NCBI GenBank assembly: GCA_963823665.1
Contig: CAWGMQ010000011.1
Coordinates: forward strand, 736,001 to 800,000
Reading direction: 5' to 3'
From: an uncultured Planctomycetota bacterium
GTDB lineage: Bacteria; Planctomycetota; Planctomycetia; Isosphaerales; Isosphaeraceae
Length of the DNA stretch: 64,000 nt
The notes under the pieces are model-generated. The model searched no databases, was not told the DNA's origin, and saw only the letters and a program-made list of their open reading frames with translations. This document shows, one piece after another, positions 13,995 through 26,421 of this stretch; the stretch's first letter is position 1, and each line of letters opens with the position of its first letter. The position numbers were made by a program, and so were the translations under genes.

Positions 13995-14288
13995 CGGGAC
14001 CGTGAGGCGGATGAACAGGAGAAAGGGCCGGGGACATCCCTGGTGAGGAGTAACCCACTCTAACCACTTGCGTGCCAGGCGTCCAAAGGTCGCCAGATCG
14101 GACCATGCCTCGCACTCGCTCCAGGCCGGAGCGATTCGACTCGCCGCCACCGGCCGTGACCTCATGGAAAACGTCGGTCTCATGAATTATTCTTGACACG
14201 CAAAGTGCCACCGAGTCTGCTTCTCAATGCACGGATGGCACCCTTCGGCCGTCTTCGCAGGTCTCTTTCGAATAACATTGATCCATGA

Positions 14289-15653
14289 ATGAAATCCCAA
14301 CAGAAACTCACGCCCCGATCGCTGCCGCTCCCGTGTCCGATCGAGAACCGGCTCAAACTCATCGACGCACTCCGCGGCGTTGCCCTCCTGGGCATTCTGC
14401 TGATGAATATCCCGGGCTTTTCCATGCCCGATTACTCCACGGAATCGTTCAAGAGCGATCCGGCTAACGTCAACTTCTGGGTGTCGGCCGTGATCTCGGT
14501 CGTTTTTGAAGGCAAGATGCGGGCGCTCTTCGGCATGCTCTTCGGCGCAGGCGTTGTGCTGTTCGTTTCCAAAAAAGAACAGGCAGGGAGATCAGTAACC
14601 GGGCTCTTTTATCGGCGAATGTTCTGGCTTGTCCTGTTCGGCTTCATCCATGCTCACTTGATCCTGTGGATCGGCGACATCCTTTACCTCTACGGCTTCT
14701 GCGGCATGCTCGTGTATCTCTTCCGAAAGGTGAAGCCGATCTATTTGGTTCTGGGCGTTCCCTTGGTGGCGGTCGTCGATTTCACGGCGGGAACGCTGTT
14801 TTACCAGAACCTGAGGGACAAGCGCATCGCGTATGTGGAAGCCAGTGCCGTCGCCGCAGAACACAAACCACTCTCCGAGGCACAAAACAAGGCTCTCGCG
14901 CAATGGCGCGAGATCGAGAAAACGTTCATACCGAACCGCGAAGACGCCCGAGAGAACACGCGAAAAATGAAGTCGGACTACGCCACCGTTGCGAGTCACC
15001 TGCGGCCCCTGGCATGGAAGGTCGAGACCATTTTCTTGCCGATTGAGATCTGGGATTCGCTCGCATTGATGCTACTCGGCTTGGCTCTGTATCGATGGGG
15101 ATTTCTCTCGGGACAATGGTCGAATCGAGACTATGCAAGAGTCGCGGCGATCGGCTACGGCATAGGCTTGCCGTTGGCCGTTTACAGTTTCTATCACAGT
15201 TTTTTGTATAGCCCGAACCTGGAGACCAGCCTTCGTCGCATGGAACTCGAGCCCATCCAATGGGTCAGACTGATTTATCCCTTCCAACGGATATCTCTGG
15301 TCATGGCTCACGTCGCCGCGATCATTCTGCTGTACAAGGCGAAATATGGTCAGTTATTGTTCCGATGCCTCGAAGCCGTGGGGCAGATGGCGTTCACGAA
15401 TTACATCATGCATTCCGTTATCTGCACACTTTTCTTCTTCGGTTACGGCTTGAACTATTATGGCGAACTGGAGTTCTACCAGATCTACTTCGTTGTCTTG
15501 GCCGTCTGGATCGTGCAGTTGATCGTCAGCCCGCTCTGGCTGCGGTTTTTCCTCTTCGGCCCCCTCGAATGGGTTTGGCGGAGTCTGACGTACTGGAAAT
15601 GGCAGCCGTTCATCCGCCGAGGACAAGTGGCAGCAGCGGGTATCGTCGGGTAG
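14289..15653 (+). CDS. DUF418 (YeiB-like) membrane protein
   Basis: DALRGVALLGILLMNI, GKMRALF, GQMAFTNY, GPLEWVWRSLTY. Confidence 0.9.
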   Translation: MKSQQKLTPRSLPLPCPIENRLKLIDALRGVALLGILLMNIPGFSMPDYSTESFKSDPANVNFWVSAVISVVFEGKMRALFGMLFGAGVVLFVSKKEQAGRSVTGLFYRRMFWLVLFGFIHAHLILWIGDILYLYGFCGMLVYLFRKVKPIYLVLGVPLVAVVDFTAGTLFYQNLRDKRIAYVEASAVAAEHKPLSEAQNKALAQWREIEKTFIPNREDARENTRKMKSDYATVASHLRPLAWKVETIFLPIEIWDSLALMLLGLALYRWGFLSGQWSNRDYARVAAIGYGIGLPLAVYSFYHSFLYSPNLETSLRRMELEPIQWVRLIYPFQRISLVMAHVAAIILLYKAKYGQLLFRCLEAVGQMAFTNYIMHSVICTLFFFGYGLNYYGELEFYQIYFVVLAVWIVQLIVSPLWLRFFLFGPLEWVWRSLTYWKWQPFIRRGQVAAAGIVG

Positions 15654-15667
15654 CTCTGCTTGACCCG

Positions 15668-16443
15668 TCACACCGGCGTCGGCGCGACCGCCTCGCTCCC
15701 CTCGACCACCGCTTCGGCGATCTCCGCCCCAGGCGCCCGCGGCAATCGCACCACAAACCGGCTGCCCCTGCCTGGCTCGCTCTCCACGCTGATCGTGCCG
15801 CCGTGTGAAAGGGCAATGCGCCGCGCCACGGCCAGGCCCAGCCCGACCCCCGCGCGGCCCAGCCGGCGCGCCGACTCGGCGCGATAGAATGGCTCGAACA
15901 CCCGCGCGAGGTCCTCGGCCGGGATCCCGCATCCGCGGTCCTCCACCTGGAGCACAACGGCGTCCGGCTCGCACCACGTGCGCACGATGATCGGCGTGCC
16001 CGGCCCGCTATACTTGCAGGCGTTCTCCAGCAGATTTTCCAGCAACTGGCCGAGCAGCGGCCGATGCGCCCGGATCCAGAGCCGTTCGCCGTCGTTTCCC
16101 CCGAAGCGAAGGTCGGCCGCCCGCTCGTGGCCCGACCAGGTCCGAAGGTGGTCTGAGGCCCACGCGCCCAGGTCGAGGCATTCCAGGTCCGGCAGCCCCG
16201 CGTCGGCATCGGCCCGCGCAGAAACAAGAGCGCCTCGACGACTCGCCAGAACCGCACCGCGTCGCCATGAAGTCCGTCCAGCACTCGCTCGTGCTCCTCC
16301 ACGGTGCGCCGCCGGCGCCGGGCGACCTCGATTGCGGCGATCAGCGCGGCCAGCGGCGTGCGGAGCTGGTGTGAGGCCTGGCCGGTGAACTGCCTCTGTC
16401 GCTCAAGTGCCACGTGCAAGCGGTCGAGTAACCCGTTGAAACT
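15668..16443 (-). pseudogene. 5'-truncated sensor histidine kinase (HisKA plus HATPase)
   Basis: FNGLLDRL..FTGQASHQLRTPL H-box, NLLENACKY, DRGCG, GLGLA. No sensor or TM part; frameshift near 16220. Confidence 0.85.
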
Positions 16444-16445
16444 GC

Positions 16446-16655
16446 TTCATCGACGCCGAGAAGGAGGGTTACGACGCCTACCTCAAGGAGCTGCTCCCCT
16501 ACGTCCGCCCCGGCGGCCTGATCATCGCCCACAACATGAGAAGGCCTGCCCCCAATGAGCGCTACGTCGAGGCGATCACCACCAGCCCCGACCTCGACAC
16601 GTCCTTCGTCCTCATGGACGGCGCCGGGCTCGGGATCACGCTCAAGAAGCGCTGA
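16446..16655 (+). pseudogene. 5'-truncated O-methyltransferase (C-terminal 69 aa)
   Basis: Own translation: FIDAEKEGYDAYLKELLPYVRPGGLIIAHNM...GLGITLKKR*. No start codon or SAM-binding motif I. Confidence 0.8.
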
Positions 16656-16874
16656 GACAAAGCCGGAAAAGCTCGAGCAGACATGCCCCCGCCCTGGTCG
16701 CCGAACGGCTCGCTGTCGAGCCCAGCGCATCAGGGCGGGGCGCTCGGCGCCCTGCGGGAGAAAGAGTGACGGAGCCCTCAATGCAGAAGCTCCCTCCTCG
16801 GCGGCGATTGACTAAATAGTATTGCACGATCATGCGACTCAGGTGGGTGGAACTAGCTTCGCCGGAAGTCCGGT

Positions 16875-16904
16875 GTAGCAGGCACACTCCGTGTGCCGTC
16901 CGCC
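16875..16904 (+). repeat. GTAG-type REP-like palindrome
   Basis: GTAGCA followed by hairpin GGCACAC-TCC-GTGTGCC, intergenic. Confidence 0.65.
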
Positions 16905-17049
16905 GAAGTTGCCGGTCGGTGGCACTGTCCAAGTCAGCGCTCCATGCTCGGGCGAATCGCCGTCCTGGAATCGGGGAAAGCCAATTAGGTCGGAGTCATC
17001 TTTCGAGTTCATCGATCGCCATCGACTTGAGGCGGTAACGCTTAACGTT

Positions 17050-17058
17050 TGGTACATT
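17050..17058 (+). promoter_or_regulatory. Possible extended -10 element (TGgTACATT) upstream of the NACHT gene
   Basis: Consensus-like motif in a locally AT-rich patch about 190 nt upstream of the ATG at 17243. Confidence 0.35.
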
Positions 17059-17242
17059 ACTAACGAAACGGCAATTCGCAATCTTGTGAGTGCGAGGCTC
17101 CCGCCGAGCCGCGCTGGCGCTCGCCCCACCGTCCGACGCCGTGTCCCAGATCGCGAAACTTATTGACGTCGCTCGTCTCCTGGCAGACATGATTGGTCCC
17201 GATCCGACTCGACGCCACCAATGACTGGGAAGAACGCTGGCC

Positions 17243-20200
17243 ATGGCACTCTCCCCGCGCCCACTCAAACAGTACCACGTGTTCCTCGCCTCGCCCGGTG
17301 ATGTCCCGGCGGAACGGCAGCACGTGCGCAAGTTCTTCGACGAATACAACCGCCACACTGCCCACATCTGGAAGGCTCGGTTCGAGGTCATCGACTGGGA
17401 GAACTACGCGACGATCGGCGTCGGCCGTCCGCAGGAGCTGATCACCCAGCAGACCCTGGAAAAGTATCAAGACTCCCTGGCACTGGTCGTGGGCATCATG
17501 GGCCAGCGGTTCGGCTCGCCGAGCGGCAAGGCGGAGTCCGGCACAGAGGAAGAGTTCAACTGGGCGATGGAGAGCCACAAGAAAGACTCTGGCTTTCCGG
17601 AGATCAAGTGGTTCTTCCGCAAGGTGGATAAGCTCGAGCTCCCAGCCGATCCCGACGAGGCCGACGCGGCGCTCGACCAGTGGAAAAAGGTCCGCGCCTT
17701 CCGCAAGCGGATGCAGGATTTGAACGACCCGGTCTTCTACACGGAATACCCAGGCGCCGCCGGCTTCGCCGAGGTGTTCGAGCGCGATCTCAACCAATGG
17801 CTGGCGGATCCGGCACGTCCGTGGGCGGCGGAGCGTGCGGCCTCAGGTGTGCAGCGGACAGCGTGGCCGTCGCACTGCCCGCCGAGTTCGATGCGGAAGG
17901 CTACCAGGCCGCGCTGCTCAAGCGATTCGACAAGCTCAACTTCGAGATGCTCGACACGACCGGCGCGTTCTACAGCGGCGTCCGGCTGTGGAGCGTCTTC
18001 GTCCCGCAGTCGGTGCGGGAATGCCACCAGTACAACCCCCGCCTGCTGGAGATTCCCAAGGAACACCAGGAGCGGCTGCTGAAAGCCGGCGAGATCACCG
18101 CCGCGGAACTGGAGGAAGCCGAGCGGCAGGCCGATCGGCTGCGCCAGGAGTACTTCAGCCAGCCGCTCCGCCCCGTGCTGGACGTCGTCGACGAGGCCCT
18201 CCGGGCAACGTCGTCGCGGGCCGGGCAGAAGCTCGTGATCCTGGGCGACCCGGGTTCCGGCAAGTCGTCGCTGATCCGGTACCTGGCCCTGCGCTGGGCG
18301 CGTATCGCCGAATCGACGGTCCGCGACACTCAACCGATTCCGCTGGTGATCGACCTGCGCGAGTACGGCCGGTGGCAGTGCGAGGGGCGTAAGGGATTCG
18401 TCCGATTCCTGGAAGAAGGCCCGGTCTGGCACGAATGGCGCCGCGGCCTGCTGCCCCGGCTTCTCGCGCAACCCGGTCGCGTGGTGCTGCTGCTCGACGG
18501 GCTGGACGAGGTGTTCGACGTGCAGGCGCGCGAGGCAGTCATCAACGACGTCCAGCGCTTCAGCAGTGAATCCGCCCACACGTCGATCCTGCTGACGTCG
18601 CGCGTCGTGGGCTATCAGCCGCACCGGCTGCGCGACGAAGGGTTCCGTCACTTCATGTTGCAGGACCTGGCCACCGATCAAATCACCGCTTTTGTCGACC
18701 GCTGGCATGCAGAGACCTTCGCCAGCGAGGAGCAAGCGGCGCCGAAAGGCGAGCGGCTGAAAAAAGCCATCAAGGATTCGAAGGCGATCGCCATGCTGGC
18801 CGGCAACCCTCTGCTCCTCACGATGATGGCAATCCTGAACCGCAACCAGGAACTGCCGCGCGATCGGGCCGACCTGTACGCCCAGGCGTCCCGGGTGTTG
18901 CTGCATCAATGGGACACCGAACGGGCGCTGGTGGACTTCCCCGGGCTGCGAGCCGATGTGGGTTTACGCGAAAAGACCGATATCCTGCGCCGCGTGGCCT
19001 TCCACATGCAGTCGGGACCGAGTGGTCTGAAGGGAAACCTGATCGACGGCGCAACGCTTAGCCGCCTGATCGAGGACTATCTGCGTGAAGAGCTGCATTT
19101 CGACCCGGCCCGCGCCGCGGCGCGTGCGGTGGTCGACCACCTGAGGCTGCGCAACTTCATCCTTTGTTTCGTAGGCGCGGACAGCTACGCCTTCGTGCAT
19201 CGCACGTTTCTGGAGTACTTCTGCGCGGCCGAGTTCGTGCACCGGTTCAACGTCACGAAAACTCTGGACATGGACGGACTGATCCAGTTGTTCGACGACC
19301 ACTGCCGCCATGACGAATGGCGCGAGGTCCTGCGGCTGATCTGCGGCCAGATCGACGAATCGTTCGTCGGCAAGATAGTCGAGCACCTGGCCGCGCGGAG
19401 GGTTTCAGAGACCTGGGACGGCGAATCGCCGCGGCCGGAATTGCTGTTGGCGATCGGGTGCTTGAGCGAGGCGCGGAACATCGCACGGCTCGAGGACTTT
19501 GCGCGACTCTCGTCGACGCGCTACTGCGAATTTACATACCTGGGGACGGCGTAAAGGAGTTCCACGACCGGCTCCTCGCTTCGCAGCGGGAAATAGGTAC
19601 CCGATGGCCGGGAGCCGGGGCACTCTGGACGACGGTTCTCAAGCGCGAAAGAGAAATCAATGAAACATGGGCGGCGGTATTCCTGGTCAAGTTTCTGGCA
19701 TGCGTTCGCCCCGAGCGACAACTCGTGGAGCAGCTTCTGGCATCGAAGAATTATTGTCTGCGTTGGAGCGCAATTGAGGCGTTGGCCGAGCACTGGCCCG
19801 ACGAGGCGACCCGCGCCGTGCTGACTCGGCACGCCGTACAGGATGGCGAGTACCCTGTCCGTGGCGCCGCGCTTAAGACGTTGGCCGAGAATTGTCCCGA
19901 TGAGGCGACGCGTTCCCTACTGATGCAGCGTGCGGTGCAGGATGACAACGACGCTCCCCGCCAAACCGCGCTTGAGGCGTTGGCCGCGAAGTGGCCCGAC
20001 GAGACGACGCGTGCGTTGCTGTCGGAGCGGGCTGTGCAGGATGACAACGGCGGTCCCCGCCAAGCCGCGGTTCGGGCGTTGGCCGATAAGTGGCCCGACG
20101 AGACGACGCGTGCGTTGCTGTCGGAGCGTGCGGTGCAGGATGACAACGACGTTCCCCGCCAAGTCGCGCTTGAGGCGTTGGCCGATAAGTGGCCCGACGA

Positions 20201-22085
20201 GACGACGCGTGCGTTGCTGTCGGAGCGTGCGGTGCAGGATGACAACTACGCTCCCCGCCAAGCCGCAGTTCAGGCGTTGGCCGCGAAGTGGCCCGACGAG
20301 ACGACGCGTGCGTTGCTTTTGGAGCGTGCTGTGCAGGATGACAACAACGGTCCCCGCCAAGCTGCGGTTGAGGCGTTGGCCGCGAAGTGGCCCGACGAGA
20401 CGACACGTGCGTTGCTGTCGGAGCGGGCGGTGCAGGATGCCAACTACGATCTCCGCCAAGCGGCGGTTCGGGCCTTGGCCGCGAAGTGGCCCGACGAGAC
20501 GACGCGAGCCCAGTTCGCCAAGTGGACGACCGAGGCGGCAGCGCCCGATGTACGCAGCGCTGCGGTTCAGGCGTTGGCCGCGAAGTGGCCCGACGAGACG
20601 ACGCGTGCGTTGCTGTCGGAGCGGGCTGTGCAGGATGACAACGGCGGTCCCCGCCAAGCCGCGGTTCGGGCGTTGGCCGATAAGTGGCCCGACGAGACGA
20701 CGCGTGCCCTACTGACGCAGCGTGCGGTGCAGGATGACAACTACCCTCCCCGCCGAGCCGCGGTTCAGGCGTTGGCCGATAAGTGGCCCGACGAGACGAC
20801 GCGAGCCCAGTTCGCCAAGTGGACGACCGAGGCGGCAGCGCCCGATGTACGCAGCGCTGCGGTTCAGGCGTTGGCCGCGAAGTGGCCCGACGAGACGACG
20901 CGTGCGTTGCTTTTGGAGCGGGCTGTGCAGGATGACAACTACGCTCCCCGCCAAGCCGCAGTTCGGGCGTTGGCCGAGAAATGGCCCGACGAGACGACGC
21001 GCGCCCTGCTGATGGAGCGTGCCGTGCAGGATGACCACCGCGCTCCCCGCCAAGCTGCGGTTGAGGCGTTGGCCGATAAGTGGCCCGACGAGACGACACG
21101 TGCGTTGCTGTCGGAGCGGGCGGTGCAGGATGCCAACTACGATCTCCGCCAAGCGGCGGTTCGGGCCTTGGCCGCGAAGTGGCCCGACGAGACGACGCGT
21201 GCGTTGCTTTTGGAGCGGGCTGTGCAGGATGACAACTACGCTCCCCGCCAAGCTGCGGTTGAGGCGTTGGCCGCGAAGTGGCCCGACGAGACGACGCGTG
21301 CGTTGCTGTCGGAGCGGGCTGTGCAGGATGACAACAACGGTCCCCGCCAAGCTGCGGTTGAGGCGTTGGCCGCGAAGTGGCCCGACGAGACGACGCGTGC
21401 GTTGCTGTTGGAACGGGCTGTGCAGGATGCCAACTACGATCTCCGCCAAGCGGCGGTTCGGGCCTTGGCCGCGAAGTGGCCCGACGAGACGACGCGAGCC
21501 CAGTTCGCCAAGTGGACGACCGAGGCGGCAGCGCCCGATGTACGCAGCGCTGCGGTTCAGGCGTTGGCCGCGAAGTGGCCCGACGAGACGACGCGTGCGT
21601 TGCTTTTGGAGCGGGCTGTGCAGGATGACAACTACGCTCCCCGCCAAGCCGCAGTTCGGGCGTTGGCCGAGAAATGGCCCGACGAGACGACGCGCGCCCT
21701 GCTGATGGAGCGTGCCGTGCAGGATGACCACCGCGCTCCTCGCCGCGCAGCGCTTGAGGCGTTGGCCGCGAAGTGGCCCGACGAGGCGACTCGCGCCTTG
21801 CTGGCCCAGCGGGTTGTCCAGGATCCGGACGATCAGGTGCGAGGCCTCGCCTTTTCCGCGTTGGCCAGGACCCACTCCCCGATTGGCCGCATCCTGCCGA
21901 CACGAGACTTGGATGGCGTGGGCCCGTATCTCGATCCACTGCAACCGATTCCACTTGACAATATCCGAAAGGCCGCCAAAAGGCTCAGCATCCACCCCGA
22001 CGAAATCGACGCCCAGGTCGCGTCGCTCTCGGCGCACTTGGGTTGGGATATCACCCGCGGCGCGAAGCCATCGGGTAAAGAATAG
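17243..22085 (+). CDS. NLR-like STAND protein: DUF4062 (TIR-like) + NACHT + HEAT-like repeats (frameshifts near 17850 and 19500)
   Basis: VFLASPGDV..ER..GQRFGSP..SGTEEEF (DUF4062); Walker A GDPGSGKS; Walker B LLLDGLDE; NPLLL; FVHRTFLEYF; then about 21 33-aa repeats. Three overlapping ORFs in domain order. Confidence 0.85.
19839..21870 (+). repeat. Tandem array of 99-nt (33-aa) HEAT-like coding repeats, about 21 units
   Basis: Units start at 19839, 19938 ... 21819 at an exact 99-nt period. Consensus QDDNxxPRQAAVxALAxKWPDETTRALLxERAV. Confidence 0.97.
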
Positions 22086-22209
22086 CTCAGAAGCAATCCT
22101 ACCAGAAAGGAACGCGAACTCGGCGAGTGAGCGCGCGAATCCAACCGGACCGGAACGCAACGGATACGGATCGCACACACCGCCCGCCATGCCCCGCCCC
22201 CAAATCCCA

Positions 22210-22238
22210 TTGAGCTTGGACCACCGCCCCGCTAAGCT
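22210..22238 (+). promoter_or_regulatory. Putative sigma70 promoter TTGAGC-N17-TAAGCT (copy 1)
   Basis: Canonical spacing, conserved in both duplicated units. Confidence 0.55.
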
Positions 22239-22276
22239 GACGTGTGTCGCCGTCGCGGCAATGGAGTCCAGCCGCC

Positions 22277-22879
22277 ATGCAAACTCAACTCGTCATGATG
22301 CTGATCCTGGCTTCAACCGCTCAGTTGAAAGCAGACGACAGGCCCCGTCCCGAGCCTCCGCGCGTCTGGCCGGTGACTACCATCCACTTCCGGACCGCTG
22401 GCGAAACTCACGCCCTCACGCTCGAAATGCCACCGCCGGCTGCCGCGGACGCCGAGGACGACGATCCGCCTCCCGCACAGCCGGTCGGGCGTTTCAATTT
22501 GAATACCGCCATGCTGGATCGCGACAACTTCGACCGCTGGCTCTTCCCCCGCGAGCTCTCGGAACGCGCCCGGTACGATCATTTGAAGGAAATCCTCGAT
22601 GCAAGGATCGTTGTCGTGGCCCAGGCGAACAAGCTGACAGACCACGAGCGCGCCAAACTCCGTCTCGCCGGACGCGGAGACATCAAGCGATTCTTTGATG
22701 AAGTCCAGAAGCGGAAGGATCAGTTCGAGATTGACAGAAAGTCTTTCAACACCGGCCTCGCAACCCTGCGCCGCCTCGACGAGCTCTCGCCAACCTACCG
22801 GGACGGCCCCTTCGGCGCTGACTCGCTCTTCGTGAAGATACTTCATAAAATCAGGAACGACCGGCAGACTGGCGGTTAG
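22277..22879 (+). CDS. Hypothetical exported protein, tandem paralog 1
   Basis: Signal-like N-terminus, AKLRLAGRGDIKRFFDEV motif, GGAG upstream; paralog of 22982..23575. Confidence 0.8.
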   Translation: MQTQLVMMLILASTAQLKADDRPRPEPPRVWPVTTIHFRTAGETHALTLEMPPPAAADAEDDDPPPAQPVGRFNLNTAMLDRDNFDRWLFPRELSERARYDHLKEILDARIVVVAQANKLTDHERAKLRLAGRGDIKRFFDEVQKRKDQFEIDRKSFNTGLATLRRLDELSPTYRDGPFGADSLFVKILHKIRNDRQTGG

Positions 22880-22914
22880 CGCCGGCGGTCCCACATTGGC
22901 ACCCCCCAATCTCA

Positions 22915-22943
22915 TTGAGCTTCGACCACCGCCCCGCTAAGCT
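22915..22943 (+). promoter_or_regulatory. Putative sigma70 promoter TTGAGC-N17-TAAGCT (copy 2)
   Basis: Duplicate of 22210-22238, 705 nt downstream. Confidence 0.55.
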
Positions 22944-22981
22944 GACGTGTGTCGCCGTTGCGGCAATGGAGTCCAGCCGCC

Positions 22982-23575
22982 ATGCAAACTCAACTCGTCA
23001 TGATGTTGATCCTGACTTCAACCGCTCAGTTGAGAGCAGACGAGAGGCCCCGTCCCGAGCCTCCACTCGTCTTGCCGGTGACCACCATCCACGTCCGGAC
23101 CGCTGGCGAAACTCACGAGCTCACGCTCGAAATGCCGGCGCCGGACGACGAGGGCGACGATCCGCCTCCCGCACAGCCCGTCGGGCGCTTCAATTGGAAT
23201 ATGGCGATGCTGGATCGCGACAACTTCGACCGCTGGCTGTTCCCACACGAGCAATCGGAAACCGCGCGGCAGGAGCATTTGAGGGACATACTCGACGCCA
23301 AGATCGGTGTCGCAGCTTCGGCGCACAAGCTGACGGATCTAGAGCGCGCCAAGCTCCGTCTCGCCGGACGGGGAGACATCAAGCGATTCTTCGATGAAGT
23401 CCAGAAGAGGAAGGATCAGTTCGAGACCGACAGAAAAAACTTCAATACCGGCCTTGAGGCGCTGCGCCGTCTTGACGCGCTCTCGCCAACCTACCGGGAT
23501 GGTCCCTTCGGCCCTGGCTCGCTCTTCGCCAAGACACTCCACAAGATCGACAACGACCGCAAGACTGGCCGATAG
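22982..23575 (+). CDS. Hypothetical exported protein, tandem paralog 2
   Basis: Collinear and highly similar to 22277..22879. Confidence 0.8.
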   Translation: MQTQLVMMLILTSTAQLRADERPRPEPPLVLPVTTIHVRTAGETHELTLEMPAPDDEGDDPPPAQPVGRFNWNMAMLDRDNFDRWLFPHEQSETARQEHLRDILDAKIGVAASAHKLTDLERAKLRLAGRGDIKRFFDEVQKRKDQFETDRKNFNTGLEALRRLDALSPTYRDGPFGPGSLFAKTLHKIDNDRKTGR

Positions 23576-23747
23576 CACCCGCAGACCCTCATTGCGGTCG
23601 CGTGCACGACCCGTTAGATTCACGCATGCCTCAAATGCGCGTGTGCGATAAACGTCGACGGCCGGGCCTGCGCCGTGACCCGGCTGAAGGTTCATCCGCG
23701 GCTCTCGCCGGTGTCAACGCCCAAGACGAATAAGAGGATGTGCACAC

Positions 23748-25253
23748 ATGGCGCAGCGGGGCAATGCCAATGTCCAATTCGAGGGCCAGACCATCGACGA
23801 GATGGTCGCGGCGTTCATGAAGGAACACCGCATCCCGGGAATGACCCTGGCAATCGTGCAAGCCCCGTACATCCCGCGCGTAGTGGGGTACGGCGTCTCC
23901 GACGTCGAGAAAGGGCTGCTGGCTTCGCCGAAGACGCTGTGGAACGTCGGCCAGATCACGCAGGCCTACACGGCCGTCGCGATCATGCAGCTCGTCGAAG
24001 AGGACAAGCTCGCCTTGGATGATCCTGTCAGCCGGCACCCCCCGAGCTTACCGGGCCCTTGGCAAGGCATCACGGTGCGGCAGCTCATGGCCCACGCCTC
24101 CGGGTTGCCCGACTACACCAGGCAGCCGTCCTTTCAGCCCGCTCGCGAGTACACTCCCGACCAGGTGATCGCCTTGGTCAAGGACATTCCCCTGGCCTTC
24201 ACGCCCGGCACGCGCGTCGAAAACAGCGCCACCAACTTCTTCCTGCTCGGGCTGGTCGTCGAGCGTGCAAGCGGAATGAGCTACGAGGAGTTCGTCACCA
24301 AGCACCAGATCGAGCGCCTCGGGCTGAAGAACACGTTGTTTCCCTCCAAACTCGCCCAAATCAAGTCGGAAGGGCTCGAACCCGGTTCGGCCAAGCACCA
24401 GAAGTTTCTGAGCGAGCGGCCCTACATCGACCCTACGGAGCTGGCCACGGGTTACACCGAGAAAGACGGCAAGATCACACCGGTTCCACGCAACAGTCAG
24501 AGCGCCTGGTATGCGAGCGGCGCGATACTCGCCTCGGCCGAGGATATCAGCCTCTGGGACATCGGGCTCGCGGGTAACCTGCTCGTCCGCAAAAAGGAAA
24601 ACCGCGACTTCCTCTATCATGGCATCGCGCTCAGCGACGGGACGAAGGTCCCGGCGCATTGCGGTTGGCGATTCCCGGGGCGCCCGGGGCTCATGGACGT
24701 CCGAGGAAATGTGCCCGGGTTCTCGTGCTACCTGAGCCGGCTCACGGTCGATCTCGTCTGTGTCACATTATGCGCGAACAAGGAAGGAGTAGACCTCACC
24801 GAGCTAGGAAGGCGCATCGCCGGGGCGTTCGACCGCGCGCTGGGGCCGCCGGTCAGCCCCAAGGTGATGACCTGCCTCGAAAGCTGCTTTCCCGTCGCGA
24901 CGACCGCCGACCGCCTGGCCGAGTTTCTCCGGACCAACGGCGTCGAAGTCGTCGCACGCATCGACCACGCCGCCGCGGCCCGGAAAAAGGGATTGGCAAT
25001 GAGACCCACGGAAGTGCTCATCTTCGGCAACCCATCCCTCGGCACGCACCTGATGCTCAGCCGGCCCAGCGTGGCACTCGACCTGCCGCTGCGCGTTGCG
25101 GTCTGGCAGGAGGTAGACGGAACCGTGTGGGCGGGCTATCACGATGTTTCCGACCTCGCCAGCGGCCACGGGATCACCGACCGCGCGGAGACGCTCGAAG
25201 CGATGAAGTCCGGCCTGACCGCCGCGCTCGCCCATGCCACCGCGCCATATTAG
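23748..25253 (+). CDS. Beta-lactamase-fold (serine hydrolase family) protein fused to DUF302; catalytic motifs degenerate
   Basis: IPGMTLAIV, TVRQLMAHASGLPDY, ERLGLKNT; C-terminal RIDHAAAA..VLIFGNP..ALDLPLRVAVW. Confidence 0.85.
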   Translation: MAQRGNANVQFEGQTIDEMVAAFMKEHRIPGMTLAIVQAPYIPRVVGYGVSDVEKGLLASPKTLWNVGQITQAYTAVAIMQLVEEDKLALDDPVSRHPPSLPGPWQGITVRQLMAHASGLPDYTRQPSFQPAREYTPDQVIALVKDIPLAFTPGTRVENSATNFFLLGLVVERASGMSYEEFVTKHQIERLGLKNTLFPSKLAQIKSEGLEPGSAKHQKFLSERPYIDPTELATGYTEKDGKITPVPRNSQSAWYASGAILASAEDISLWDIGLAGNLLVRKKENRDFLYHGIALSDGTKVPAHCGWRFPGRPGLMDVRGNVPGFSCYLSRLTVDLVCVTLCANKEGVDLTELGRRIAGAFDRALGPPVSPKVMTCLESCFPVATTADRLAEFLRTNGVEVVARIDHAAAARKKGLAMRPTEVLIFGNPSLGTHLMLSRPSVALDLPLRVAVWQEVDGTVWAGYHDVSDLASGHGITDRAETLEAMKSGLTAALAHATAPY

Positions 25254-25519
25254 CTCGAGTGAAATGCTCGGATGCCGGTTGCGCTCGTAGAATCGACGAC
25301 GGTCGCTTTCCTCGTAGGGTCCGCCCCGACCGTCCGCCCCGCAATGCCATCCCCGCAAGAAGCCCGACCTGCCTCTCCGCAGCGCATCAGCGGTGTCACG
25401 AAGCGCTCGATGCGTTACGATACATGTGTCGGTAACGTAATCAGCGTAAGAAGATTTCAAGTACCCTCACAACCGGAGCTAAGCGTTGCCCACTTGGTGG
25501 CCCTTCCGAAAATCCCCAC

Positions 25520-26421
25520 CACCCCCTCGCCCCGCTCCACTCGACGCGACGGCAATCGTCCGCCGAGCGCCGTCGCTTGCGCTTCCGCGTCAAGCCCGGC
25601 GCCGTCTCGCAGCTCGCCGGTGCCTACCATGGCGCCCGGCCGGGGATCGGCCTCACCTTCGCTGAGCTTCGCGCCTACGAGCCCGGCGATGACGTCCGCC
25701 ACATCGACTGGAACGTCACCGCCCGCCAGGGCCGGCCGTTCGTGCGCCGCTACGTCGAAGAACGCGCGCTGTCGCTGTGGCTCGTGGTGGATGTCTCCGC
25801 CAGCATGCGGTTCGGCCTCGAGCGGGCCACCAAGGCCGATCGCGCCGCCCAGGCCGCCGCTCTTCTCGCCACCGCCGCCGTGCAGAACGGAGACCGGGTC
25901 GGCCTGGCCTTGGTCAGCGATCGCATCGAGCTCGAGCTGGCCCCAGCCGGCGGCGTGCGACACCTCTCCCAGTTGGTCCGCGCTCTTGTCGCCACGCCCA
26001 CCACTTCCCCCGGCACCAAGCTCAGTATCGGACTGGCAAGAGTCCGCCGCACCGCCCGGCGGGCCATGCTCGTCGTGATCAGCGACTTCGTGAGCGAAGA
26101 GCCCTCGCTCACCTGGCGCCGCGCCGCCCGGCGCCACGATACGATCGCCATTCGCGTCGTCGATCCCCGCGAAACCAAGCTGCCCGACGCCGGTATCCTT
26201 TCTCTCGAGGACGTCGAGCGCGGCAAGAAACGCTTCGTCGACTCAAGCTCGCGCCGCCTCCGCCGCGACTATGCAAAGGCAGCGGTCGATCGCACCAGTC
26301 GTTCCAGCGCTGGTGCGGCAACTCCGGCATCGAGCCGTTCACGATGATGACGGACTCGGATCCGATCATACCGTTGATCGAGCTGTTCTCACGACGCAAC
26401 ACGCGCCGGGGTGGCTTGTGA
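25520..26421 (+). CDS. DUF58 family (MoxR/VWA-associated) protein; frameshifts near 25565 and 26295, start uncertain
   Basis: FAELRAYEPGDDVRHIDWNVTAR, VDVSASM, GDRVGL, ISDF. Confidence 0.85.

Follow-up and report, generated by a model that had tools for sequence, protein, structure and literature searches.

The 64,000-nt window analysed here (contig CAWGMQ010000011.1 of assembly GCA_963823665.1, forward-strand positions 736,001–800,000) comes from an uncultured planctomycete of the Isosphaeraceae, whose genome of 16.46 Mb in 12 contigs (given C-numbers below), 91.9% complete, was searched as a whole. At 17243–22085 on the plus strand lies a gene that is read in three frames in the assembly and that encodes, according to Pfam, a DUF4062 domain followed by a NACHT module, an array of HEAT-like repeats and a wHTH-HSP90_Na-assoc domain (Table 1). 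The array is the subject of this report. An original prediction, made from the letters alone, had drawn attention to two adjacent hypervariable codons in its units and had offered two explanations: diversifying selection on one binding face, perhaps as a repeat-variable di-residue (RVD) code like that of TALEs, or adenine-directed mutagenesis by a diversity-generating retroelement (DGR) acting in trans. It did not place the array as the sensor end of a DUF4062–NACHT protein.

Table 1. Coordinates of the gene's features in the window, and of the retroelement found elsewhere in the genome (RT, reverse transcriptase; ORF, open reading frame).
Feature	Position	Strand	Evidence or remark
N-terminal effector region with DUF4062	17243..17842; Pfam part about 17279-17566	+	PF13271, E 2.4e-5
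First frameshift, between effector and NACHT	17843..17862	+	homologs switch frame here
NACHT (STAND) module and helical domains	17851..19500	+	PF05729, E 5e-11
Second frameshift	19495..19505	+	homologs switch frame here
HEAT-like array, 21 in-frame units of 33 residues	19794..21872	+	PF13646, E 4e-72
Variable face	19950..21737	+	codons 20-21 (first 19950-19955, then each 99 bp), 24-25, 28, 32
Type-B unit (W at position 13)	20487..20585; identical copies 20784-20882, 21477-21575	+	lacks the DDN loop
wHTH-HSP90_Na-assoc domain, C-terminal	21888..22007; stop codon ends 22085	+	PF24410, E 5.5e-6
DGR RT (IGSLTSQ/YMDD)	C8, about 131.4-132.5 kb		template behind RT
Complete DGR	C8, about 131.3-133.3 kb (L055 1340-3300)	minus	CLec-type target, small ORF, RT, template

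The DUF4062 match scores 24.9 bits against a cut-off of 24.7, barely above it, and the effector end also matches the PADLOC candidate system PDC-S60 (E 1e-27). The N-terminal 200 residues are 92% identical to residues 1–200 of an intact homolog, P0080, and the next 565 residues 85% identical. Near the end of the Pfam match is a GTEEEF segment (residues 100–105), present also in homolog P0039, which we take to be a candidate for the catalytic-glutamate motif of DUF4062; a sequence search found no solved DUF4062 homolog with which to align it. The NACHT module has both a Walker A motif (GDPGSGKS, 18244–18267) and a Walker B motif, read from the sequence as DGLDE (18496–18510), which is of the D[GAS]hDE type reported as the NACHT signature (10.1101/2022.07.19.500537). 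The C-terminal wHTH-HSP90_Na-assoc region is 60–77% identical in the closest homologs. The effector–NACHT–repeat layout is split here by two frameshifts, but is a single polypeptide in P0080 and other homologs. In a soil metagenome (run X1), compared over the non-repeat stretch 15000–19790, a related contig with 56 other letters in 772 has a net gain of four bases at 17843–17862, and a 200-nt contig with one other letter and one gap has one extra base behind 19500. Because this second contig is nearly identical to the window, the second frameshift is probably an assembly indel or very recent, on the strength of a contig with a depth of only 3.5. Both frameshifts are probably assembly errors. 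Five sequencing runs were listed as carrying the sequence, none of them of RNA, with a best share of 0.16.

The array itself runs for 2079 bp without an indel or a stop codon. All of its units measure exactly 99 bp; two are caps, 16 are standard units and three are type-B units identical to one another. Only 16 of the 21 units are distinct, so that they are not independent of one another, and the array contains exact repeats 266 and 185 bp long. The standard units share on average 87.6% of nucleotides and 82.6% of amino acids, within the 70–100% that characterises NLRs with high internal conservation (HIC). When each unit is numbered from its W, the hypervariable codons of the original prediction, counted there as codons 5 and 6 over 19938–21818 (units 2–20 plus the start of unit 21), become positions 20 and 21. 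The codons are as described there, and all nine of the di-residues listed for them are present: eight (DA, GG, DV, YA, NG, YD, YP and RA) belong to the 16 standard units, and PD is confined to the three identical type-B copies. The NNC-NNT pattern holds in 20 of 21 units, the exception being the last cap unit (GAT-CAG), and the further E/R/Q site (GAG, CGG or CAG) is position 28, seven residues after position 21. The fixed third bases, on the other hand, carry no signal of their own: among 13 distinct standard units an invariant third base is found in 16 of the 33 codons, so that a pair of this kind is unremarkable (P = 0.23 for two given codons), and the pattern is a chance by-product. Codon 21 is GNT, rather than NNT, in 12 of these 13 units, and of the 11 units extracted from a homologous array at a metagenome locus, L069, only four follow NNC-NNT. 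The claim of a KWPDETTRA core invariant even at silent sites was correct for WPDET, whereas silent variation was seen at T6, R7, A8 and K33.

The gene belongs to a family for which 237 homologs were found; the counts given here rest on the 120 listed. The same NACHT region occurs in 105 of these 120, at an identity of 82% in a homolog labelled Isosphaeraceae; that label and a DUF1559 gene on C4 both point to a planctomycete. At least four units could be extracted from 66, and 28 of the 66 are at least 70% alike internally. A unit similar to type-B (W13 ... APHxDVR) recurs in about 11, and two unit classes have therefore been kept across the family. In three of the 120 (P0051, P0052 and P0091) the same HEAT repeats were observed with a KAP NTPase (PF07693) replacing NACHT. 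A query of six units matched none of 400 other genomes of the phylum at E 1e-10 (eight candidates scored per genome); a scan of genome contigs gave one incomplete locus and a scan of metagenomes seven loci, with a long array only in L069 and no extractable units in L072, L073 and L075. With none of the 400 genomes matching that query, the distribution of the family appears patchy. Two paralogues with the same DUF4062–NACHT–HEAT layout lie 10 kb apart on C4, at 810.7–814.6 kb (L053) and 824.8–828.0 kb (L054); their units are divergent and non-homogenised, and they contain two frameshifts and one, respectively. We found no description of this family in the literature, although the supplements of two papers (10.1101/2022.07.19.500537; PMC13581612) may list it.

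In a ten-unit AlphaFold model (pLDDT 92.4), the repeats are predicted to form HEAT/alphaRep-like helical hairpins, with helix A at positions 4–16 and helix B at 20–33. Foldseek places alphaRep structures first, fourth and fifth, with designed peptide-binding armadillo repeats among the other fold neighbours, and the sole sequence match in the PDB is likewise an alphaRep (4JW3 chain C, E 0.005). In the alignment with that chain, positions 20, 21, 24, 25, 28 and 32 correspond to alphaRep positions 18, 19, 22, 23, 26 and 30, which are the randomised binding positions of alphaRep proteins (PMC3754942). As mapped by this alignment and by helical period, positions 20/21, 24/25, 28 and 32 follow one side of helix B, with positions 18–19 in the preceding loop. 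The expectation that the variable residues would share one binding face was thus borne out by a stripe on helix B that matches the alphaRep binding positions. The amino-acid variation clusters where helix B begins and down one of its sides: across the 28 internally conserved homologous arrays mean entropy peaks at position 21 (0.58), followed by 20 (0.48), 19 (0.47), 24 (0.45), 18, 22 and 28 in that order, and position 21 ranks among the top three in 19 of the 28 arrays and position 20 in 14. The match to alphaRep is not a neat one, as the loop positions 18–19 and position 22 also vary much.

The shape of this stripe bears directly on the suggestion of a TALE-like code, in which each di-residue would read one element of a linear ligand, a base or a peptide residue, and the order of the units would spell the target. 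Such a code is invited by the fixed period of 33 residues, the near-identical scaffold, the adjacent variable pair and the number of units (21), and the designed armadillo repeats among the fold neighbours do bind peptides in a modular fashion. The variation, however, extends as a stripe over six or more residues of helix B and the preceding loop instead of being confined to a pair. Furthermore, the 460 homologous units contain 144 di-residues, of which even the commonest is found in just 30; the units carry a net charge of −4 to 0, from acidic to neutral, and the closest homologs manage with 3–7 units. The RVDs of TALEs sit in the inter-helix loop. They are found at positions 12–13 of the repeat (PMC11417379), whereas the pair described here is at the start of helix B; the passages of that survey on DNA-binding tandem repeat proteins do not mention NACHT. 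The di-residue code is therefore without support, and we regard it as quite improbable.

Selection was assessed from omega (dN/dS), estimated for each codon by counting on a minimum spanning tree, a procedure that saturates and does not involve codon models. The counts used 13 of the 21 units, leaving out the two caps, the three type-B units and three exact duplicates, and 10 units of L069, leaving out its first unit and one missed by the motif. Outside the face the scaffold has an omega of 0.24 and is under purifying selection. Making up 13.5 of 74 sites, the six face positions account for 15 of 26 amino-acid changes (p 8e-6; for L069, p 4e-4), and at codons 20/21 there are eight non-silent steps and no silent ones. 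Of the variants at these two codons, six of eight are one base away from a neighbouring variant, and the spanning tree comprises 4 + 4 single non-silent steps, as expected if ordinary point mutations arose and were then copied. The per-codon check proposed with the original prediction gave a raised estimate for codons 20/21 (omega about 2.4), yet with a p value of 0.036 that is one-sided and post hoc among 33 codons; L069 gave 2.0 (p 0.15), and the pooled pair p 0.016. For the face as a whole omega was 1.5 (p 0.17), or 1.5–1.6 with L069, with a pooled p of 0.07. The idea of diversifying selection on one face combined with unit exchange thus stands as regards the face and the exchange, while an omega greater than 1 is only suggested.

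An unlikely alternative is a neutral and recent expansion under relaxed constraint, perhaps in a decaying gene: slippage would have lengthened the array, and changes at the exposed helix-B positions would merely be tolerated, with omega close to 1. The face estimates of 1.5–1.6 are not significantly above 1, the same positions vary in all natural alphaRep-like repeats (PMC3754942), and the two frameshifts in the gene would fit decay. It is harder to reconcile with such an expansion that 2079 bp of array have acquired neither indel nor stop codon, that the scaffold omega is as low as 0.24, that one of the frameshifts is absent from the near-identical X1 contig, and that non-silent steps outnumber silent ones by eight to none at codons 20/21 (p 0.016 when pooled with L069). 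High internal conservation is also enriched in repeat proteins that bear an ATPase, with an odds ratio of 4.78 reported for repeats of the types WD40, ANK, TPR and LRR (PMC13449251).

The units have been copied and recombined within the gene. By the four-gamete test 78 of 210 informative site pairs are incompatible, 22% of near pairs and 44% of far ones (permutation p 0.0017), a degree of incompatibility reached in 18 of 500 clonal simulations. Recurring di-residues sit in blocks of 15 nt whose copies are all identical, bar one base in RA. In a set of 12 hand-picked homologs plus the window protein, 100.8 of 125 units have their nearest neighbour within their own protein, where 10.8 would be expected. 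The concerted evolution and unit exchange typical of HIC NLRs are thus present, within the gene only. Strict-motif counts for the eight closest homologs (NACHT identity at least 82%) are 5, 3, 5, 7, 14, 9, 9 and 3, against 21 here, indicating that unit number varies widely among close homologs; these counts compare homologs rather than strains of one species. Long-read consensus over near-identical units might have inflated the copy number or created mosaics, and frameshifts in all three paralogues, one contradicted by the other data set, do suggest an indel-prone assembly; the exact 266- and 185-bp repeats inside the array could be read in the same way. We nevertheless consider an assembly artefact very improbable, given that independent homologs share the internal conservation, the mosaic units and the variable sites, and that the array itself contains no indel.

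Mutagenesis by a DGR on an AAC-AAT template called for a search of the genome. The GxxxSQ motif denotes DGR-type RTs and the SP-type motif those of group II introns and retron-like enzymes. Among 22 RT matches in the genome, 21 have an SP-type motif and one has IGSLTSQ together with YMDD; the latter is part of a complete DGR on C8, the small ORF of which is presumably HRDC-like. Of 124 bases compared between the template and the adjacent target, 18 differ, every one of them at an adenine of the template; a remote target of CLec type (C5:1153404–1153527) has 25 differences, 17 of them at adenines, with weaker targets at C4:620247 and C10:1519975. To us these targets read like the CLec ends of FGE-sulfatases. 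A class of FGE-sulfatase CLec-type DGR targets has been described (PMC10907252).

Although the genome therefore holds a genuine DGR and is 91.9% complete, and although NNC at codon 20 is compatible with an AAC template, the evidence points firmly away from this mechanism for the HEAT array. The best matches to the unit DNA outside the gene are the two paralogues, at 65–68% identity, and a 29-nt pattern around the pair, with up to three mismatches allowed, has 16 of its 16 matches inside the gene. The DGR template aligns to the array with a local score equalled by 21 of 200 shuffles, and its identity at non-A positions is 0.57–0.64, compared with 1.0 for its true target. Of 37 variable columns in the array, 19 are without A in every unit, the first base of codon 21 among them, and nine columns of adenine are invariant. 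Codon 20 is GAG or GGG in 7 of 11 units of L069, and position 20 is E, Q, K, M or W, none of which NNC can encode, in 143 of 460 homologous units. The recommended search for a template near a DGR RT thus did recover an RT, with a template unrelated to the HEAT units. With no template copy found in the genome, an adenine rule that fails, and a DGR that serves CLec-type genes, we reject a DGR origin for the assembled genome and put its probability close to nil; nor can the missing 8% rescue it, since the array itself breaks the adenine rule. As separate observations, an RT of group II intron type is situated some 3 kb from the C8 DGR, and C3, C6, C8 and C11 (L021–L033) carry seven equal-scoring copies of a 634-residue group II intron-type RT frame, several of which have another intron-type RT at a distance of about 2 kb.

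The reading we favour, with a probability of about 0.7, takes the array for the solenoid with which a bacterial NLR-related (NACHT) protein, bearing a DUF4062 effector, senses its ligand at the C-terminal end. It would be an NLR-like sensor of the HIC, HET-E-like kind coupled to a putative TIR-like NADase. DUF4062 has been described as a TIR-like NADase and antiphage effector (10.64898/2026.05.01.722283), HEAT-type sensors on bacterial NACHT proteins (10.1101/2022.07.19.500537) and STAND sensors of phage proteins (PMC13581612) are known, and Evangelion is listed as a further DUF4062 antiphage NADase. Slippage or unequal recombination would homogenise the scaffold and reshuffle blocks of sequence, while point mutations at the face would be tolerated or favoured and then spread by copying; if mutation precedes copying in this way, each variant codon would for that reason keep its ancestral third base. 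By analogy with these systems, binding of an invader protein to the face might then release the NACHT switch and lead to oligomerisation, and the clustered DUF4062 domains, as in related systems, would destroy NAD+ so that the infected cell is arrested or killed.

Several observations weigh against this sensor model. The gene is broken twice in the assembly, both C4 paralogues are frameshifted too, and unit number and order come from one assembly. No defence genes were recognised among the neighbours (30 ORFs at six loci, by Pfam only). Positions 25 and 32, which belong to the alphaRep-like face, vary little across homologs (entropy 0.13 and 0.21), whereas position 11 (M, S, L or T), on the other helix and absent from the original prediction, is as variable as position 28, with a non-synonymous diversity (piN) of 1.0 at each. 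An omega above 1 on the face is hinted at rather than established. A more far-reaching proposal, which we think improbable, sees in the array a natural counterpart of an alphaRep library, programmed by recombination and with modular read-out, in which the faces of the units (20/21, 24 and 28) would each recognise one element of an extended or periodic invader ligand and the family-wide type-B unit would provide punctuation. Were this true, reordering of units within a lineage would rewrite the target at which the NADase fires, amounting to a bacterial protein-level code without a retroelement.

Nothing in the sensor model calls for a system of a new kind: an NLR-like protein of bacteria whose HEAT sensor homogenises itself is a well-formed example of a known one. 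Its interest lies in extending the fungal HET-E mode of diversification to a bacterial NACHT–HEAT family of more than 100 members, and to a repeat type left out of the cross-domain survey of such proteins (PMC13449251). As the sensor is joined to a newly characterised family of NADases, loss of NAD+ could provide a simple read-out in the search for its ligand, and the coincidence of natural variable sites with engineered alphaRep sites would make the family a source of natural binder diversity. Since the genome also holds a true DGR, it offers a side-by-side view of two routes to sensor diversity.

The surroundings of the gene include some further repeats. Upstream, 16860–16916 is probably a dispersed repeat, as the X1 contig there reaches a depth of 137, compared with about 5 elsewhere, and has numerous loose ends. 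Downstream are two similar ORFs in tandem (22244–22879 and 22949–23575; 211 and 208 residues) with signal-peptide-like starts, a duplicated upstream segment and no Pfam match. At 17–552 a WD40 array of 126-bp units, 85% alike, ends a gene that starts before the window; its variable residues are chiefly those that follow GHAG and RLAS, and it looks like another internally conserved sensor. The window contains no tRNA, and 14000–26000 is without a match in Rfam.

Compared with alphaRep, whose unit is 31 residues long, the present units differ in having 33 residues, in being natural, in being fused to a NACHT switch and in having been diversified in vivo. They share with alphaRep binders and natural HEAT_2 (PBS-lyase-like) repeats the fold, the six variable positions and an adjacent pair, there 18–19 (PMC3754942; PDB 4JW3). 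The effector is of the same family as that of Swarozyc, which senses portal by means of a small auxiliary domain and for which the account describes no NACHT–HEAT sensor (10.64898/2026.05.01.722283). The same source notes DUF4062 beside NACHT, as here, in human TEP1, NWD1 and NWD2, where the repeats are WD40. The DGR-diversified NACHT–CLec sensors of multicellular bacteria (PMC10907252) are likewise putative antigen sensors with fast-changing binding sites, but the HEAT array differs from them in having neither a template nor an adenine rule, the CLec-targeting DGR being elsewhere in the genome.

Closer parallels are provided by the bNACHT proteins of antigen-receptor type, which have an N-terminal effector, a NACHT module with Walker A and the DGLDE signature, and a C-terminal HEAT sensor (10.1101/2022.07.19.500537); the main text of that preprint does not contain the term DUF4062, and its passages do not speak of near-identical HEAT units or variable sites. 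For bacterial STAND sensors with WD40, TPR, ANK or LRR repeats, an internal conservation of 80–90%, as here, has been described and proposed to permit rapid diversification (10.1101/2020.01.06.895854; PMC13449251). The former noted internal conservation for the WD and TPR repeats of bacterial NLRs, and HEAT does not occur in its text, while the cross-domain survey excluded HEAT (PMC13449251). The fungal HIC NLRs differ in host, in repeat unit and in effector, the present protein being bacterial, with an alphaRep-like HEAT unit and DUF4062; there is also no sign here of exchange between genes, the two paralogues having divergent units, and positive selection has been demonstrated in the fungal proteins, whereas here it is only suggested. 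Nonetheless, HET-D, HET-E and HNWD of Podospora share with the planctomycete protein the effector–NACHT–repeat layout, the near-identical units, the exchange between units, the variable unit number and the small number of hypervariable residues on the binding surface (Podospora: PMC1805685; PMC4986451; PMC13449251), and one Podospora NACHT gene carries conserved HEAT repeats of 33 residues (PMC13449251).

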